Source: Neophaeotheca triangularis (Eukaryota). From it: a DNA stretch of 64,000 bases. The notes under the pieces are model-generated. The model saw only the letters and a list, made by a program, of their open reading frames with translations, ran no database searches and was not told the DNA's origin. The stretch spans positions 124,001 to 188,000 of the forward strand of contig BAAIJX010000034.1 of NCBI GenBank assembly GCA_054600435.1, written 5' to 3'. A program made the translations under genes and the position numbers. Below, one piece after another: positions 26,738-37,248 of this stretch (its first letter is position 1; every line of letters begins with the position of its first letter).

Positions 26738-28455
26738 GGAGAGGCGAGGCACTAAAGGGGGGTATCGAAAAGGTCTTTTCAAGAAATCGGGATTCCAACG
26801 ATTGACTGGTCAAACTTTTGGATTCTGTCGGTTGGCGGTGAGTGGGGTTCTCGGCAGTGGCGATGGAACTAGACGGTGGCATAGACGAATAGATGGATAG
26901 ACCTTTGACTCTCAAAATACCCTCACCCTACTCTAAACCCCTCCTCTCATCTACCCAGCTCTACAGCACAGTCCGCCGCAAAAGCAAACCCATCCAATCC
27001 TTCCTTCTCCATCACGAAAAATCTCACCCCGCTCACCTCTGCGGACTGCCCAATCCCTTTTCCACCCCACATGCCCCTCTTTAAGTGCCGCAAGCAGTAG
27101 TCCCCAAGTAGGTGCAGTGCTAGCTCCGACTCGACTCCCACGGCCCCTGTGTGCGGCTCGAGACTTCTGGCGGCTATGCGGTTGAAGCCTCTTTTCCCCC
27201 CAAATCCCCTTGCTCTCGCAGTCTTTTTTTTTTTCTTTGATCCCTGGACACTATCGATTTTCTGGACGGGAAGTTTTTGCAAGCGTGTGGGTATGGGCAC
27301 TAGAGGTTGAAAGTTCTCCCCTCCCCCTTTCCCCGCAAGAGAAAAAAAAAAAAAAAAAAGGGAATCTGTTGGCACTCTCAAGGGGAATTGGGTCTGGCTG
27401 CGTTGTTCTTCAGTGCGGTTTTGAGTGAGGCGTGTTTTCGTTTCTTACTAGTTTACGGAGCTTTGAGCGTGCTGGTCGAGATGATTGACGCTCGTGGATC
27501 CCTATCGGTTTCTTTGCGGCGCGGCTGGTTCCAACTTGAGGCTATGGCGTGGAAGTCCGTGGGTTTACTTGAGTGGTTCGGTTGGAAGAGGACTGGGCTC
27601 TTGCTTTTTTTTTTTTTTTTTTTTGGTGTTCTTCTTCTTCTTCTTCTTCTTTTTACGGCTAGATGTTCAGTGGATTGTCGAGAGGTTTCATATCAGTCGC
27701 TCGTGGGGTCCTATGTTCTGGCCCTTCTATCTCAGTCGCTAGGTAGTGGTTCGAGACTTGCGGGTAGTGTTAGTGTATTGGAATGGGTGTGTGTTGAAGG
27801 GGAGTTTGGGAGGGATTTGTGGTGGGTTGGATCGTTGGCAGTGAATTCTTGCTGAATTTGCGAGCTCTTCGCGGAATGGAGAGGTAGGCGATCGATCTCT
27901 TTTTGGGAGGAGGGGCGGGGGTGGGTGCTAGAGAGATCTCCTGTGATCTCAGGGGTAACCAGGAGGATCAAAGCTTGGGTGGAACGCCTCATTTCTTCCA
28001 ATGCTTTTGCAAGCGTTGAAACATCACTGTTTTCCTACGATGGGCCTCTCAATTGTTGTTAGATGAGTAGCTAGGGTTTAAGTAGATGCAGCTGGAAGCC
28101 ATGCCTGTACCTTCGGGCCAGCTCGTCAGCTCTCCGCTCCATGATCCTATGCATTGCGAACTGACCTACCGGTTTCCCATTGCTCAGAACTGCGGATAGC
28201 TGCAGCTACCAGCTGAAAAAGGCTCCATAGAAAAGGTACATATCCGGTCCCGAGCAGACTCTGATTTCTACTCTTGATTGCTAATGCATTCAATAAATCT
28301 GCCGGCTGAATCGCACTAGCGCTGAGCTGTGTCATAATAATAGTGTCGATGTCTACTGCCAGTTCCAAGCTCCTTAGCCATTTCACATTTCAGGTTAAAC
28401 CCTCAAGGCTTTATATGTTCTTCACCCTTCTTCCCTACATCATCACTAGCGATTC

Positions 28456-28648
28456 GGATCTTTGGCGCAGTGGTAGCGCGTCTTGGTCAAAGGAGTAGTC
28501 AGCCCGAGAGGGCAGCCGGGACGCCGGCTTTGGGGGTACTTAATTGTACCCTTAGTGGGAGGTTCATCCTCCCATTAAGGCCATTGGCCCGTGTTTAGAC
28601 TGCTGCCGTCAATCGAGATGGTCCCGTGTTCGATTCATGGAGGATCCG
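28456..28648 (+). ncRNA. tRNA-like gene 1 with ~121-nt structured insert (nominal anticodon CAA, non-canonical)
   Basis: Acceptor stem GGATCTT/AGGATCC; D-arm GCGC-AGTGGTA-GCGC (A box); anticodon stem TCTTG/CGAGA; variable loop TGGTC; T-arm CCGTG-TTCGATT-CATGG (B box); TTTTT at 28657-28661. Confidence 0.85.
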
Positions 28649-29224
28649 GTCTCTTCTTTTTGTTGGCTTTTGCTTCTTGCTTTGAAAGTGTCCGTAAGGC
28701 GACTCTGGGAATCAGGAGCTTGAGCAGCAAAAGCTCGATCAGTCCTCGGGGATTGGGGGAGATGGGGCACCTAATTGCAGCGAACACAAGACGGTTTTGC
28801 CTGCTTCTGACTGCCAGATTGCTTTTTCTTACGCATTCGCGACCTTGCAATCTGCTCGTGTAGAGGCGGGAAGCGGCGGATTGATCTGTTGGGCTTTGGA
28901 TGGCTGACTTGATAAGCGTTGGCTGGCTTTGCAATGGTGACAGTGACCGTGTCTTTCGCTGCCAGCACATGCCTTTGCCCTTCACCAGGTTTCGTGCTCG
29001 AACCATAGAAGATCCATTTCTGATTGCAAGATCGCCCCCAGACAGCTTGCGGGCGTCGGGTCTCGAACTTTCAAATGGCATCCTCAGAGTAGCGGGAATA
29101 CAAATCGTCCAGGGGCTGCACTTTATGGTCTTCTGATCTGCCTCCCCCGCTCATCACTGATCTCCATCTGCAGTGACACCTCGAGACTACATTTAGACTC
29201 TCACCAACCTCTACTATCAGCCAA

Positions 29225-29391
29225 GGGTCGTTAGCGCAGTTGGTAGCGCGTCTCAGCTACAAAGCGATATCGTTCCCATGAACGCCGTCGTTGTCAAACA
29301 CCGGCGGGATTCGGCGTGTCCATCACCTGATGGGGGTAAATCGATCGCTGGCGCTTGAGGAAGGTCCCCTGTTCGAGCCAGGGACGACCTA
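29225..29391 (+). ncRNA. tRNA-like gene 2 with ~93-nt structured insert (nominal anticodon TAC, non-canonical)
   Basis: Acceptor stem GGGTCGT/ACGACCT; D-arm GCGC-AGTTGGTA-GCGC; anticodon stem TCTCA/TGAGG; T-arm CCCTG-TTCGAGC-CAGGG; TTTT at 29402-29405. Confidence 0.85.
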
Positions 29392-29879
29392 TTCGTATTC
29401 CTTTTGCATGTTATAATCATTTCTCGACTTTTGATTTTGTGCAAGTATTAGGATCGGCGGTGTGGACGTTGTTTGTTTATCGGCTCGGTTACATGCAGCT
29501 TTTTGTTTGCGCTCCCCGCTCTGACATCCCGCTCAACCAGGACACCTTTCTAAAGGGAGGCTAAAGCCGCACTTTCAAGGGTGCATGTGAGCTCAGGGGA
29601 ATGTGACTGCTGTCGCTAGCACTCGAAAAGCTCCCATACCCCGATTGGGGAGTATCTGTTAATGATTCTTGCTTCCGTTTAACGCACCAGGAGTCTGCCA
29701 ATCTTGAGGCTTATCATGAGAGCTGAACCGTGAACGTGAGAGTCCTCCTGCATACGTTTGGCCAAAACGGGACGTCCTATTTTTCGCCTACCGGAATTGC
29801 CATCCAGCTTCTGGGTGCGCTCAACCTTCCTGGACCCATGTCGCCCCGCCAGCCACAACCCATTCCCGTCGTCTCACCA

Positions 29880-30024
29880 GGGTCGTTGGCGCAGTGGCAG
29901 CGCGTCTAAGTTATCGTGGCAGGTTTGATCCTCTCGACCGGTTGCACCCTGTGGGACACTGCTTGGAGTGTGCGTCAAGCCGACAATCCCGAGGAAGCCC
30001 ACCGCTCGAACGGGTGACGATCCA
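29880..30024 (+). ncRNA. tRNA-like gene 3 (degenerate) with ~71-nt insert
   Basis: Acceptor stem GGGTCGT/ACGATCC; D-arm GCGC-AGTGGCA-GCGC; imperfect anticodon stem; imperfect T-arm CACCG-CTCGAAC-GGGTG; TTTT at 30029-30032. Confidence 0.7.
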
Positions 30025-30166
30025 GTACTTTTGTTCTTCCCTGCTGGTCTAGCCAGTTTTTGCGCGGGGATTAAAAGGTGTCCTTCACTTCCAGACTCTA
30101 AAGAAGATTGACTAGACCAGAACAAAAGTCCCCTCACCGAAGACAGGCCGATAGTTAAGGAAAACT

Positions 30167-31034
30167 TCATTTAGATTCCGATGAAAGCGCCTGCTGCTCC
30201 TGGGCCTCCTGCTTTGCCTGCTGCTCCCTCAAAGCAGCGATCTTGTCCTCCACAACCGCCAACTCAACTTCGACATTCAACATCTTCTTCCTTAGCAAAG
30301 CCTCGTACTCGCCTTCCTTCATGACAGTAACCGGACTCCACTTGCGCTCTGCCAGCCAACGCAGAAAACCCCCCTTTCCCTCGCTTTCCGTCTCCACCCT
30401 CCCATCCCAACGATCATACAGCGCCTGACCCATCCATCCAAAAACCCCGAACATAACCGCTCCGGGCAATACATTAGCGCGCCCACGGAAAACGGCGCCC
30501 GCGATACCTCCAGTTGAGGCTCCGGCGACGGCGGAAGCGGTTTTGATGTCGCTCGCGTTGAGGCCGGAGTAGCTGCCTCCCTGTTCCTGTCCTGGGGCTT
30601 GGGGGGTTTGTGGTCGCTGCCAGGCTGAGAGCAGTAGACTGCGAGTCGCCCAGAAACCGGAGCCGAGACAGAAGGTTTGGATGCCTGTGGCTGTGGCGAA
30701 GAGGGTTGGAGTTGTGGATTTGAGGATTCCTGCTGTGCCGCCTAGGAGGAAGCCTGTGGTGCCTGGGTTTGGGATGTTTGTTAGAGAGAATGACGTTGTG
30801 GAGAACAAGAGCTCCTGTGGGTAGTGTTGTCGCTGTCACGTGCAAGCTAGAAGTAACACATGGACTTGCCAGCGTATGGCCCTGTCTGTATGCCTGATGT
30901 AGACTTGCTTGATTCTTTCGCCACCACCTTTGCCGTCAAGGGGACTTACCTGTGAATGCACCCACCTTCAAGGCGGGCCCGAGGACAGCCGCCACCGAGT
31001 CCCGCGGCAATCCATTATGCTGGCTATTTGCCAT
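30167..31034 (-). CDS. Conserved fungal membrane protein, Tim17/Tim22-like Gly-rich TM helices
   Basis: Exon 1 31034-30950 (MANSQHNGLPRDSVAAVLGPALKVGAFT), GTAAGT...CTAAC...CAG intron, exon 2 30762-30167 (GTTGFLLGGTAGILKS...GRANVLPGAVMFGVFGWMGQ...KWSPVTVM). The family call is an inference. Confidence 0.65.
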
Positions 31035-31428
31035 GACCAAAGGCTCATCCAATCATTGGCTCGATAAATCACACGGGAGAGTGCAGATGCATGATGCCGA
31101 GTGGCAGTTTAGAAGCTGTCAATAGTAACGTTATGCGAATGGCAGAAGGGGGAAAACGGGGGAAATGGCTGAAGCTCATGCGAACTCAAGTTCGCCAGAC
31201 GTCGACGTTTTTTGGGAGCACGGGCCACCCTCCTTGCCAAGAGGAAATTACGATTCTTTAGCAGCTTGTCCTCTCCGACGCCGTCGACTTCACCTGGGCC
31301 CAACGCGAAAATCGCACCTTCAAATACCCTCAACTTTCGACGAATAATAACCGAGCGCGACTTACTAGCGCTCATACTACGCGACTGAAGGAAGAGAAGA
31401 GCAAGCAGCGACTGCAACAACCGCAAGC

Positions 31429-33368
31429 ATGGCGCCCAAAAAGAAGCAGCAGGAGAAGATGAACTTGGGCACGTTTTTGGCGGATCAATGTAAGAGATAT
31501 ACGCGCTGTGGGAAGTAAAGTGCGCTGGACATTTGGCTAACACTTGTACAGCGCTCGGATCGTGGGCCGATGAAATGGATTCGCAGCCTCTGCCCTCTGC
31601 GCCCTCGTCGGGTTACAGCAGCATGAACAGAGACGGAGGCGGAGAAAGGCGTGGCTTCGGCACGGGAGCCTGGGAGCGCTCGGCGAGTGGCACGGGAGAT
31701 CGTGCTGGCAGCGGCTATGGTAAGTCAAGGACAGACGAATGAGAATGAGAATTCCGCGCATTTATTAACAAAGATATTTTCTACAGCCCGCACTGAAGGA
31801 TATGCCCGCCAGGAACGTCAAGAGCTGCCCCTCCCGTCCAAGCCGCCGTACACTGCGCATTTGGGCAACCTCGCCTTCGACGTCAGCTCGGGAGACATTG
31901 AGAGCTTCTTGGGCGAGTGCCAAGTCACCAACGTGCGCATTGTGGAGGACAAGCTTGACCACAAGCCCAAAGGCTTCGGCTATGTCGAATTCGCGACACT
32001 CGACGGCTTGAAGAAGGCCCTCACGCTTACCGAGACAAACTTCATGGGGAGGAACATTCGTATCAGTGTTGCTGATCCACGTAAGTCGTGCCATCCCGAT
32101 ACTCTCCACCTCGCGCACAATTAGACTGACAATATGAAACAGCGAAGGACCGTGGCGGCGACTCGAACCGTGACTTCTCCGACTGGTCCCGCAAGGGGCC
32201 TCTCCCAGACCTTCCTCAGAACAGCCGCAGGCCGAGCGATAGGGGTGCTGGATTCGGTGCTGCGCGCGGCATGGATAACGCTTCAGATGCTGGTGGTGAG
32301 CGCGAAGGCGGTGACAGGAGAAGGCCGGGATTCTTTGAGAACGACAACAAAGTTCGTGACTTCGGCAACTGGGAGCGCAAGGGGCCTCTTACCCCGGCAC
32401 CTGGCGCTGCCCCACCCATGCGCGACGGCGGCAGACTGAAGGAGGGCGGGCCACCCATGGAGAGAAGAGCAAGCCCGGCTTGGGGTGAGGGCCGTTCAGA
32501 GGCTGGATCTAGACCCCCACGCAGGGAGTTTGTCGAGCGTCCGGCTCCCGAGCGCGCCCCAACCGCCGCCGAGCAAGACAGCCAGTGGCGCTCCAAGATG
32601 CGCCCTGACCCCGAGCCAGCCGCGACTCCCGAAGTGTCCACCCCCACCTCTCCCGCCGCCCCCGCCGCACCCAAGGAGCGCCCACGTCTCAACCTAGCCA
32701 AGCGCACCGTCTCTACCGCCGACCCCAGCGCCCCGCCCGCAACCGCTGAAGCCACCGAATCCTCCTCCAAAGCCTCTCCGTTCGGCGCCGCCCGCCCAGT
32801 CGATACAGCGACGAAGGAAAAAGAGATGGCCGAAAAGCGCGAACAAGCCGCCAAGCAAAAAGCCGAAGCCGACGCTAAAGCGCGCGAAGAAAAAGCCGCC
32901 AAAGACGCTGCTGCCCGTGCAGATCGCGCCGACCGCGCCGACAAAGGCCAAGGCGACGAGACCGTTAAATCCCCCACCACCGAGACGGCGCCGCCCACCG
33001 GCCCACGTCGCCCCTCCCGCCAACAACAACAGCAAAATTCCAACAAAAACCCAAAGGAAAACGTCGACCAGCAACAGCGCGAAAAACCCAGTTTCAGTAT
33101 CCTGCAGCGTGATGCCGGCGGCGATGAGCACGATGAAGCACCTTCCGGCGCCGACGCCGAGAACGATGCCAACGGTGCTATCGTCGGCGACAAGGAGACC
33201 AAACCACAGGAAGTCGTGCGTGAGGTTCCCAAGGATGGAAGCGGAGCTACTGCTGAGGAGACGACTGCTGAGGCTATGGATGAGGATGGCTGGAGCACTG
33301 TTGCTGCTAAGCCTAAGACTGGACGCAGGGGTGGAGGGGCTGGCGGGGCGAGGGCGCTGGCTTCTTAG
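31429..33368 (+). CDS. TIF3: Translation initiation factor eIF4B (RRM)
   Basis: Exons 31429-31489, 31552-31719, 31787-32080, 32143-33368. MAPKKKQQEKMNLGTFLAD, SWADE, PPYTAHLGNL (RNP2), KGFGYVEF (RNP1), DW.RKGPL repeats and SPFGAARPVDT. Confidence 0.9.
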
Positions 33369-35364: not shown

Positions 35365-37248
35365 TCACTTTATGTAAACGTCGATTGATTTCCCGGTCGG
35401 GTCTGGCCAGTATCCAGCAGATCGTGTGTATACCAAAGAAAAAAGCTTCTCTTCGTGTGCCAACCGACGTAGTACCAGTACAAAGGGTTCCCATCTTTCA
35501 TGCGTGTCCCGTTTATTACAACGTATAGGAGAGAGTCGACAGACTAGGTCGCTGGCGACAAGTTGAGGGCCAGGGTAGGTATCAGGTTGGTCATCACAAT
35601 CGTCGGAGCTATCGTAGTATTCGGAGTCTTCACACTCGTCTAAGTTGTACCTTGACCACACCAGGCGCCCATTCCTCATGACCGACAATTGCTGGTCTTC
35701 TCCGCCATAGGTTTTCTTCAGCTCCACAAGATGGTCGTCTTGCATGACAGACAGTGATCGGTCTGTCCTGCCTGGGGTCTCCTTCACTTCGCCATAAATC
35801 TTGACTGTGCATTTCAGCACGTTGTTGGTGTCGACTTTCACTTTTAACCAACGCGTCAAAGGGCTGCTGCCGACGAATGGCAGCCGCAGATCGGGTACCC
35901 AAGACGGTAGGCCCTCTAAGGGGCTGTCTATCAGTTCAATGAAGGTGACCTCCCGGACCTTGCGCCACCGCTTTGGAGGGTTGAACGTTTGTATCAACGT
36001 GCTGAAGATCAGATTGGCCAAGCCTTTCTCGACGAGCATAACCGCGAAGATAGTGTAACTTTCGGCAGCACTGAGACGGTAGTCGGGCTGTAAGTTGAAT
36101 TTAGGATCAATGCTGGCAAGCGCAAAGATTCTGTCGCGAGGATCGCTACACTGCTGACTGGAACAGAGTTGCAGTACTATTGGCAAACGCCCATCAGGTC
36201 TTTCGGGGTAGTTCTTCGGGGTTGAAATTTCATCAGCATCTTGGCAGTTCAAGACACTATAAAGCCCATTCCGAAAAAACTGCCAGGCGTCCTCAAATCG
36301 GCGCAAGCGCCTGCTATCCCAGTTACTTATGGCCAAATGGCCCCGAGAGTGTTTTAGGAGTTCAATGGGACGTCGCAAGAAATAATAAACCCGGAGCTCG
36401 TTGAATAGAAGAAGTGGAAACTTGCAAGGCCCCCAGGCTGCCTCTAAAGTAGACGGATCTGAATAGTAAAGTTCTTGGCACATCCAGCGTCGAAAAAAGT
36501 ATCTCCGGCCGAACAAGGCACGCAGAAGTCTTCCAACTTCAAAGATATCCTCACGAAGTTCACTGTCGTGGCATTCAAACAGAGAAGCCCTCTGCTCGTG
36601 TGTCCGCTTGCTTAGTGCCCATTTGAAAGTAGCAACCAGGTCCACCATCTGCCCGTTGTCCTTTGCCCACTCGTGGTCTTCTATGCCCTCATCTCCTGGC
36701 CAGCTAAGGTGCGGGAACCTTTGTTGGTCCAATTCGTGCAGCCTGCGATGGAAATCACGATCTTCTTCGTCTTCGATGTAGGTCATCTCATGCATCAAGA
36801 AATGGAAAAGGCTCGAAATAGCAAGGTCGTCCTTCTCAGATTCGCCTTCGCCAAGCCAGGCAATAGTTCTGGCCGCGTTCGAGTAGATCTCCGACATACG
36901 AGCAACCTGATGATTCTTCTCCTCCAGATCAGACTGGTCGATGCACACGGCATCCACCCATAGTCGTACTTCGCTATCAGGGCGTCTGATTCTTTTGAGA
37001 CCCTCGAATAGATTCTGCGTGATGTCCAGGGTTCTGCCAGACACCTCGATTGTGCGAGAGAGGGAAGCATCTCCGTCTTTGTTCATCCCCCAGCTGTATG
37101 AAAGTGCAGCGTACGGATCGGCAGCATCGCGGCGTGTCACTTCGAGACCACACCGGACAGGGTCATCGTAATTGTCGCTTGGATGTAAGACTAGTATGCG
37201 TATGCGGTCGGCATCTGGTAAGGGTGTGTACTCGAACTTGTCGGCCAT
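35365..37248 (-). CDS. HET-domain (heterokaryon incompatibility, HET-6-like) protein
   Basis: 627-aa ORF with IRILVLHP, YAALSYSWG, ITQNL, LWVDAVCIDQ, QVARMSEIYSNA, YFFRRWMCQE and CSDPRDRIFAL motifs. Confidence 0.9.
   Translation of the reverse strand: MADKFEYTPLPDADRIRILVLHPSDNYDDPVRCGLEVTRRDAADPYAALSYSWGMNKDGDASLSRTIEVSGRTLDITQNLFEGLKRIRRPDSEVRLWVDAVCIDQSDLEEKNHQVARMSEIYSNAARTIAWLGEGESEKDDLAISSLFHFLMHEMTYIEDEEDRDFHRRLHELDQQRFPHLSWPGDEGIEDHEWAKDNGQMVDLVATFKWALSKRTHEQRASLFECHDSELREDIFEVGRLLRALFGRRYFFRRWMCQELYYSDPSTLEAAWGPCKFPLLLFNELRVYYFLRRPIELLKHSRGHLAISNWDSRRLRRFEDAWQFFRNGLYSVLNCQDADEISTPKNYPERPDGRLPIVLQLCSSQQCSDPRDRIFALASIDPKFNLQPDYRLSAAESYTIFAVMLVEKGLANLIFSTLIQTFNPPKRWRKVREVTFIELIDSPLEGLPSWVPDLRLPFVGSSPLTRWLKVKVDTNNVLKCTVKIYGEVKETPGRTDRSLSVMQDDHLVELKKTYGGEDQQLSVMRNGRLVWSRYNLDECEDSEYYDSSDDCDDQPDTYPGPQLVASDLVCRLSPIRCNKRDTHERWEPFVLVLRRLAHEEKLFSLVYTRSAGYWPDPTGKSIDVYIK

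Follow-up and report, generated by a model that had tools for sequence, protein, structure and literature searches.

Three co-oriented, tRNA-shaped elements lie on the plus strand of contig BAAIJX010000034.1 of the fungus Neophaeotheca triangularis (assembly GCA_054600435.1), within the 64,000-nucleotide stretch (contig positions 124,001 to 188,000) that was analyzed here and that we call the window; all coordinates below refer to its numbering. The elements, designated E1, E2, and E3, start at 28456, 29225, and 29880, and the measured spacings of 769 and 655 bp agree with the ∼650–770 bp given in a first-pass annotation of this DNA. That annotation described them as tRNA shells that are kept in order to express and release structured RNAs. 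The reading that we favor, at about even confidence, is that they form a small, old, and diverging tandem family of tRNA-derived RNA polymerase III (Pol III) genes, whose long introns are ordinary and whose loops do not decode. To judge from the sequences, transcription and splicing of E1 and E2 probably still proceed along the normal pathway, while E3 is a decayed copy, so that members of the family can decay. Within this reading, we favor tRNA paralogues under relaxed or shifted constraint over a purpose-built scaffold family.

Structure of the three elements

E1 (28456..28648) is a complete tRNA-shaped gene in which the 5′ exon (tRNA positions 1–37; 28456..28491) and the 3′ exon (positions 38–73; 28613..28648) are separated by an insert of 121 nt (28492..28612). 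Its nominal anticodon is CAA, its variable loop is 5 nt long, and its discriminator base is G; a T5 run at 28657..28661 is its likely Pol III terminator. E2 (29225..29391) is likewise complete, with exons at 29225..29261 and 29355..29391, a 93-nt insert at 29262..29354, a 6-nt variable loop, discriminator A, and a T4 run downstream (29402..29405). E3 (29880..30024) has exons at 29880..29915 and 29989..30024 and a T4 run at 30029..30032. Insert lengths of 121, 93, and 71 nt had been claimed, and the first two stand; the E3 insert (29916..29988) is 73 nt long by the exon limits used here, which assume 5-bp anticodon stems. In all three elements the insert occupies the canonical intron site, after nucleotide 37 and before nucleotide 38, and the inserts are indeed unrelated, as neither they nor the 100-nt flanks of the elements show mutual identity above the level of shuffled sequences. 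When the inserts and spacers were compared with the whole window, only chance matches of 11–17 nt were found.

The elements are tied together chiefly by their 5′ halves. In 64 kb, there are exactly three copies of the D-arm block GCGCAGT(T)GG(T/C)AGCGCGTCT, whereas dinucleotide shuffles give an expectation of ∼0.05–0.06, which bears out the common 5′ half that had been reported. Exon identity among E1, E2, and E3 is 67–73% (shuffle mean 0.50, standard deviation 0.03), with most of the likeness falling within the 5′ half. The stronger statement that the three have one shared body is thus only partly borne out: the 5′ halves are nearly identical, but whole-exon identity (0.67–0.73) is not above that to unrelated bacterial tRNA-Ala and tRNA-Val genes that share the D-arm pattern (0.66–0.74).

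When folded as a cloverleaf with stems of 7, 4, 5, and 5 bp, E1 and E2 form all 21 stem pairs and E3 forms 18 of 21. E1 and E2 differ at 7 of the 21 pairs, four by two-sided changes (3:70, 6:67, 31:39, and 51:63) and three by one-sided changes, and none of the seven is broken, which suggests that the tRNA fold remained under selection after E1 and E2 split. Both retain U8, A14, G18G19, G53, T54T55C56, A58, and C61. Left unconstrained, E1 reaches its minimum energy as a cloverleaf from which the insert stands apart as its own domain (z = −6.2); the minimum-energy fold of E2 is also the cloverleaf, yet it is no better than those of shuffled sequences (z = −0.8).

In E3, the acceptor stem is fully paired (7 of 7, as in E1 and E2) and contains G3:U70, but two pairs of the anticodon stem (30:40 and 31:39) are broken, leaving three of five, the T stem has a G-G mismatch at 53:61, and the T-loop starts with C (C54). 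The description of each 3′ half as having a T-arm and a pairing acceptor stem therefore holds throughout for the acceptor stem and breaks down in the E3 T-arm. The minimum-energy fold of E3 is not a cloverleaf (−51.0 kcal/mol unconstrained versus −39.8 kcal/mol with the cloverleaf forced). An alternative 5′ strand for its anticodon stem (UCUCG, 29932–29936) was tried and rejected, as the resulting fold (−42.5 kcal/mol) lies far above the −51.0 minimum; by our own arithmetic, ∼0.6 complements of a 5-mer are expected by chance in 73 nt.

The intact stems of E1 and E2 also bear on the possibility that something other than the insert is selected, either the spliced tRNA-shaped RNA, acting as a decoy, enzyme substrate, or primer, or the DNA itself, acting as a clustered TFIIIC/Pol III site that forms a chromatin boundary between the neighboring genes. 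In favor of this, the stems are preserved by pair-keeping changes despite non-decoder loops, three Pol III-type units lie in ∼3 kb that lack credible open reading frames (ORFs), and the locus is also found in a related strain (X2). Set against this, the A and B boxes would suffice for a DNA-level role, which would leave stem complementarity unprotected, nothing positive points to any RNA-level partner, E3 is decaying, and only one locus in a single pair of species was sampled. We regard this explanation as rather improbable.

Anticodon loops and gene calls

The loops read, with 5-bp anticodon stems, G32 U33 C A A A37 followed by U38 in E1, G32 C33 U A C A37 followed by U38 in E2, and G32 U33 U A U C37 followed by C38 in E3. 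The G at position 32 that had been noted in all three is thus confirmed, and in each it is able to pair with base 38. A decoding tRNA has a pyrimidine at 32, U33, and a purine at 37; here, all three elements depart from this rule at G32, E2 departs from it also at C33, and E3 also at C37. The same conclusion had been drawn in the first pass, and it stands after a scan of splice registers by eye, in which none gave both U33 and a purine at 37 in all three elements. An extra 32–38 pair adds a base pair to the anticodon stem and disfavors codon pairing, according to a published study (PMC7293025).

The isotype features of E1 are also at odds with one another, as its CAA anticodon is coupled with a 5-nt variable loop and G73. 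Eukaryotic tRNA-Leu has a long variable arm, as the first pass had noted, and A73; the nominal Leu-CAA gene E1 has no such arm. The G32 common to all three elements, together with the isotype mismatches, speaks against a role in ordinary decoding.

Running ARAGORN with long introns allowed, a check that the first-pass annotation had proposed, gave a divided answer. At its default threshold, the program called E1 as tRNA-Leu(caa) (28455–28649, 121-nt intron) and E2 as tRNA-Cys(aca) (29225–29391, 91-nt intron) in a register shifted by one nucleotide, and E3 was not called. Without introns, it found no tRNA gene in the 64-kb window. A run at a lowered threshold (-ps80) returned 169 calls, which we regarded as noise and did not use. 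A match to a known Rfam family, which would have argued against a new kind of gene, was also sought: there was none at gathering score in the whole window, and at E≤10 the region 28300–30200 gave four chance-level matches, none of them to tRNA or small nucleolar RNA (snoRNA), although the tRNA model may miss halves split by 73–121 nt.

These calls speak for considering E1, E2, and perhaps E3 as genuine decoding tRNAs with unusually long introns, in which the odd loop is tolerated or is corrected, for example by use of another cut site. The shifted E2 reading (C32 U33 ACA A37 C38) is the sole register that conforms to the loop rules, and E1 and E2 have flawless cloverleaves and all of the invariant tertiary bases. 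Moreover, tRNAs with CAA and UAU anticodons carry introns in yeast, and A73 and A35 of E2 fit valine identity. Against these points, pairing of G32 with 38 leaves a 5-nt loop in all three elements, and neither C33 in E2, C37 in E3, nor the short variable loop and G73 of a CAA-bearing E1 belongs in a decoder. The register that ARAGORN chose for E2 requires two bases between the D and anticodon stems, and ACA is not known as a normal eukaryotic Cys anticodon. The absence by eye of a common canonical splice register adds to these difficulties, and we consider it improbable that the elements are working decoders.

Transcription and splicing signals

An A-box-like sequence (TGGCGCAGTGG or TAGCGCAGTTGG) is intact at positions 8–19 of all three elements. 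Downstream of each element there is an oligo-T run, as the first pass had stated, with TTTT starting 9, 11, and 5 nt past the ends of E1, E2, and E3, respectively; because the chance of such a run is a few percent per element by our own estimate from the TTTT density, chance occurrence at all three is unlikely. The claim that promoter and processing features are kept stands for E1 and E2, which have the A-box-like block, T-arm, stems, T-run, and an insert at 37/38; the shell of E3 is broken.

The splice-site geometry is less uniform than had been proposed. A pair between G32 and a C at intron position −3, just before a 3-nt bulge, can be formed in E1 in a fold that lies 6.3 kcal/mol above the minimum and in E2 in one that lies 1.3 kcal/mol above it, the latter in a relaxed arrangement of a 3-nt bulge, a 3-bp helix, and a 4-nt bulge; in E3 it is impossible with the exon limits used, as position −3 is A. 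The occurrence of C at −3 in two elements is itself unremarkable, C making up 0.27 of the window. None of the elements has the archaeal-type bulge-helix-bulge (3-nt bulge, 4-bp helix, 3-nt bulge): the E1 minimum has a 4×4 internal loop, E2 has only the relaxed form, and E3 has none.

The eukaryotic heterotetrameric tRNA splicing endonuclease (TSEN) is described in two sources (PMC4090602; PMC10485636) as using the tRNA body as a ruler with few demands on intron sequence and as needing from the intron little more than the proximal anticodon-intron pair; organisms that have it carry their tRNA introns at 37/38, as here. The first of these sources gives a length range of 6–133 nt for canonical eukaryotic tRNA introns (PMC4090602), and all three insert lengths are within it. 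We examined whether the inserts could be spliceosomal introns by eye and rejected this reading, as no GTRNGT...YAG limits were seen.

Our favored reading, of drifting tRNA paralogues, can be put as a series of steps. The ancestor of E1–E3 would have been an intron-containing tRNA gene. In E1 and E2, TFIIIC would bind the internal A and B boxes, which the insert sets 110–160 bp apart, transcription would stop at the T-run, and the transcript ends would be trimmed by RNase P and RNase Z. TSEN, measuring from the intact body, would cut at 37/38, and Trl1 would join the halves. The product would be a tRNA-shaped RNA of 72–74 nt in which G32 could pair with 38, with C33 in addition in E2; having no clean isotype match, it would be a poor decoder or none at all. 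The inserts would be ordinary fast-evolving introns at the canonical position, by-products rather than the selected product, and E3 would be a copy already in decay.

Inserts and the release of a structured RNA

The view taken by the first-pass annotation, of the tRNA shell as an expression and processing scaffold, predicts that Pol III, end-trimming, and TSEN together release a structured insert RNA as the functional product of an undescribed noncoding RNA family. In a fungus, such an RNA would be linear because of Trl1-type ligation. The strongest evidence for this view is the E1 insert, which is predicted to fold at −66 kcal/mol (z = −6.15; none of 200 shuffles folded as well) into a compact domain with a 9-bp closing stem and five perfect hairpins, and whose paired ends could slow exonucleases. 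The hairpins (28492–28612) are free of mismatches and have stems of 4–10 bp. In addition, the shells of E1 and E2 are intact while the loop rules are broken, and no insert carries TTTT. Two preprints report that heterologous structured inserts at the tRNA intron position are excised in animal cells (10.1101/497545) and that free yeast tRNA introns can regulate mRNAs (10.1101/2025.11.19.689297).

The other two inserts do not follow E1. Although the E2 insert has a 6-bp closing stem in the whole-gene fold, it is no more structured than chance (z = −0.47; 66 of 200 shuffled sequences have folds as good or better), and neither is the E3 insert (z = +0.71). The description of the inserts as structured is thus accurate for E1 and for E1 alone, and because the E2 and E3 inserts fold like shuffled sequences, structured-insert release finds no general support. 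The absence of TTTT from the inserts carries little weight, as 43% of random sets of three length-matched segments lack it too. The inserts resemble neither each other nor the rest of the window, there is no relevant Rfam match even at E≤10, no C/D or H/ACA snoRNA boxes were seen by eye in the elements, and E3 has a broken shell.

Comparison with X2, which is represented by one DNA contig set that covers the whole locus at ∼96% identity, allowed us to ask how the E1 insert changes. Overall, there are 74 differences and 27 gap letters in 27662–29556 and 78 differences in 29564–31500. A position-by-position account covers 40 of 168 differences and ends at 28575; among those listed, none falls in 28412–28527, so that the 5′ exon of E1 is clean, at least 7 fall at 28527–28575, within the first 84 nt of the E1 insert (∼8% changed), and at least 15 fall in the 794 nt upstream. 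By our own mapping onto the predicted fold, the 7 listed insert changes comprise 2 in loops, 2 that keep a pair (G-U to A-U and G-U to G-C), and 3 that break one. As far as this small sample of listed changes goes, the E1 insert does not look like a strongly conserved structure. Perfect palindromes combined with fast change could instead point to a hairpin-making mutational process rather than to selection. X2 also differs between E2 and E3 (29556–29564), where 7 letters are replaced by 316; these could represent a mobile element or another family member.

As a general claim, a shell that acts as a scaffold for releasing structured RNA is therefore not sustained, since the E2 and E3 inserts are shuffle-like, E3 is decayed, and the E1 insert changes fast. 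The model stays open mainly because of the extraordinary insert of E1, and we judge it unlikely.

Comparison with known systems

A close likeness is to canonical 37/38 introns of eukaryotic nuclear tRNA genes, which in fungi are cut by TSEN and whose exons are joined by Trl1. The inserts here stand one base 3′ of the nominal anticodon, and their lengths are within the 6–133 nt range cited above. In E1 and E2, position 32 has a possible partner at intron position −3; the mature cloverleaf is intact in the same two elements, and the intron sequence is unconstrained and fast-evolving. The elements differ from ordinary examples in having G32, C33 in E2, isotype features unfit for the nominal anticodons, one 5′ half that is combined with three nominal anticodons (CAA, TAC, and TAT), and, in E1, an intron that is a far more ordered multi-hairpin domain than expected by chance.

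A precedent for the combination of related bodies with different anticodons after duplication is tRNA remolding by anticodon shifts; in eukaryotes, tRNA genes that retain their body are documented to have changed anticodon (Rogers and Griffiths-Jones 2014, PMC3923123). The shifted genes described there stay canonical decoders, whereas here the Y32, U33, and R37 rules are broken, which makes a functional shift questionable.

Metazoan tricRNAs (10.1101/497545) and yeast fitRNAs (10.1101/2025.11.19.689297), resemble the scaffold model in that a tRNA gene supplies the promoter and the frame for processing, and the intron, once excised, becomes an independent RNA. In those cases, the host tRNA is a normal decoder. 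Here, a stable insert RNA is a candidate. Formation of tricRNA circles, moreover, needs RtcB-type ligation, which is reportedly lacking in fungi (PMC4090602).

tRNA-derived short interspersed elements (SINEs) share with the present elements a 5′ head that resembles a tRNA and contains internal Pol III boxes. A SINE consists of such a head with a tRNA-unrelated body and tail and is dispersed, whereas here a matching 3′ half closes the acceptor stem. We rejected the SINE reading, there being only three local copies in 64 kb, each with a matching 3′ tRNA half.

Other tRNA or tRNA-like frames deliver a second small RNA: an archaeal tRNA-Trp intron encodes a C/D box guide RNA, and murine gammaherpesvirus 68 has Pol III units that join tRNA-like sequences to pre-miRNAs. 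The fungal elements are unlike the former in the lack of visible guide RNA boxes and of any Rfam match, and they are unlike the latter in that the viral hairpins lie downstream of the tRNA-like part and not in the anticodon loop.

Points against the favored reading

Several observations weigh against the interpretation of E1–E3 as drifting tRNA paralogues. Judged by sequence identity, the 5′ half is the main ground for treating E1 as a paralogue of E2 and E3. Over whole exons, identity does not exceed that to unrelated tRNAs that share the D-arm, and the seemingly compensatory changes between E1 and E2 could therefore predate any loss of decoding. No element matches the strict B-box GGTTCGANYCC within one mismatch, E1 and E2 having, by our count, two mismatches and E3 four; we count the type 2 Pol III traits (internal boxes and a T-run) as present despite these mismatches. 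If the G32 defect were ancestral to all three, neutral decay should have broken stems in E1 and E2, and none is broken, which fits some retained RNA-level function. Finally, a neutral intron would not predict the exceptional structure of the E1 insert.

A further possibility is that E1 and E2 belong to a lineage-specific fungal Pol III class whose shell is selected without decoding, either for release of a folded insert, such as the 121-nt domain of E1, or for a closed-loop tRNA-shaped RNA that acts outside translation. A selected, non-decoding shell predicts pair-preserving evolution of the four stems alongside a shared G32. We hold this possibility to be unlikely.

Genomic setting and searches elsewhere

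The cluster sits in a ∼3-kb stretch without credible coding sequence, and the GC content of the window is ∼0.54 throughout. No ORF in or around the cluster matched a Pfam family at E≤0.01; these ORFs look like chance frames, including the longest, of 148 amino acids on the minus strand. Long ORFs of the window encode a HET (heterokaryon incompatibility) domain protein (627 amino acids, 35365–37248, minus strand), MAP65/Ase1, a P4-type phospholipid ATPase, an eIF2B-family domain, Mhr1, and a GH76 protein; such genes, and the HET-domain ORF above all, mark the window as DNA of a filamentous ascomycete. Simple repeats (A18, T20, and (TTC)7.7) lie at 27342–27359 and 27605–27651, ∼0.8–1.1 kb upstream of E1.

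A scan of metagenomes with the D-arm pattern yielded at least 117 loci. Of the stretches extracted from them, 102 had an ARAGORN tRNA call, almost always for a bacterial-type tRNA-Ala(CGC), with some Val, Pro, and Gly, and no relative of the E1–E3 family was found among the matches listed. The literature was searched with the three D-arm strings and for long tRNA introns in fungi, and these searches found no description of such fungal genes.

The scan brought up three side observations. Marine contigs (L006, L009, L014, L018, L036, L051, L066, and similar ones) contain a tRNA-headed repeat with the same D-arm; behind the head come ∼150 nt of conserved sequence that does not resemble tRNA and then a tail rich in A/T. 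It is SINE-like, belongs to some marine eukaryote, and is unrelated to the fungal elements. A freshwater contig of 20.8 kb (L074) has a bacterial-type tRNA-Ala(CGC) whose 5′ part is normal through the variable loop and is followed by ∼45 extra letters before a T-loop-like GGTTCGAAGCC; it received no ARAGORN call and may be a tRNA gene with a T-arm insert. A short metagenome stretch (L087) contains two tRNA 5′ halves, with a CAT anticodon-loop context, 47 nt apart, and may be a tandem partial duplication.

Implications

If E1–E3 are drifting paralogues, as we favor, they would illustrate how long-intron tRNA genes shed the features needed for decoding and still retain the signals for Pol III and for processing, and they would serve as a warning that such genes may be miscalled as tRNA-Leu or tRNA-Cys. 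If instead the shell is selected without decoding, E1 and E2 would be a fungal parallel, found in nature, to the tRNA scaffolds that have been engineered and to the tricRNAs of animals, and would add a new way of making small structured RNAs where ligation is of the Trl1 type.

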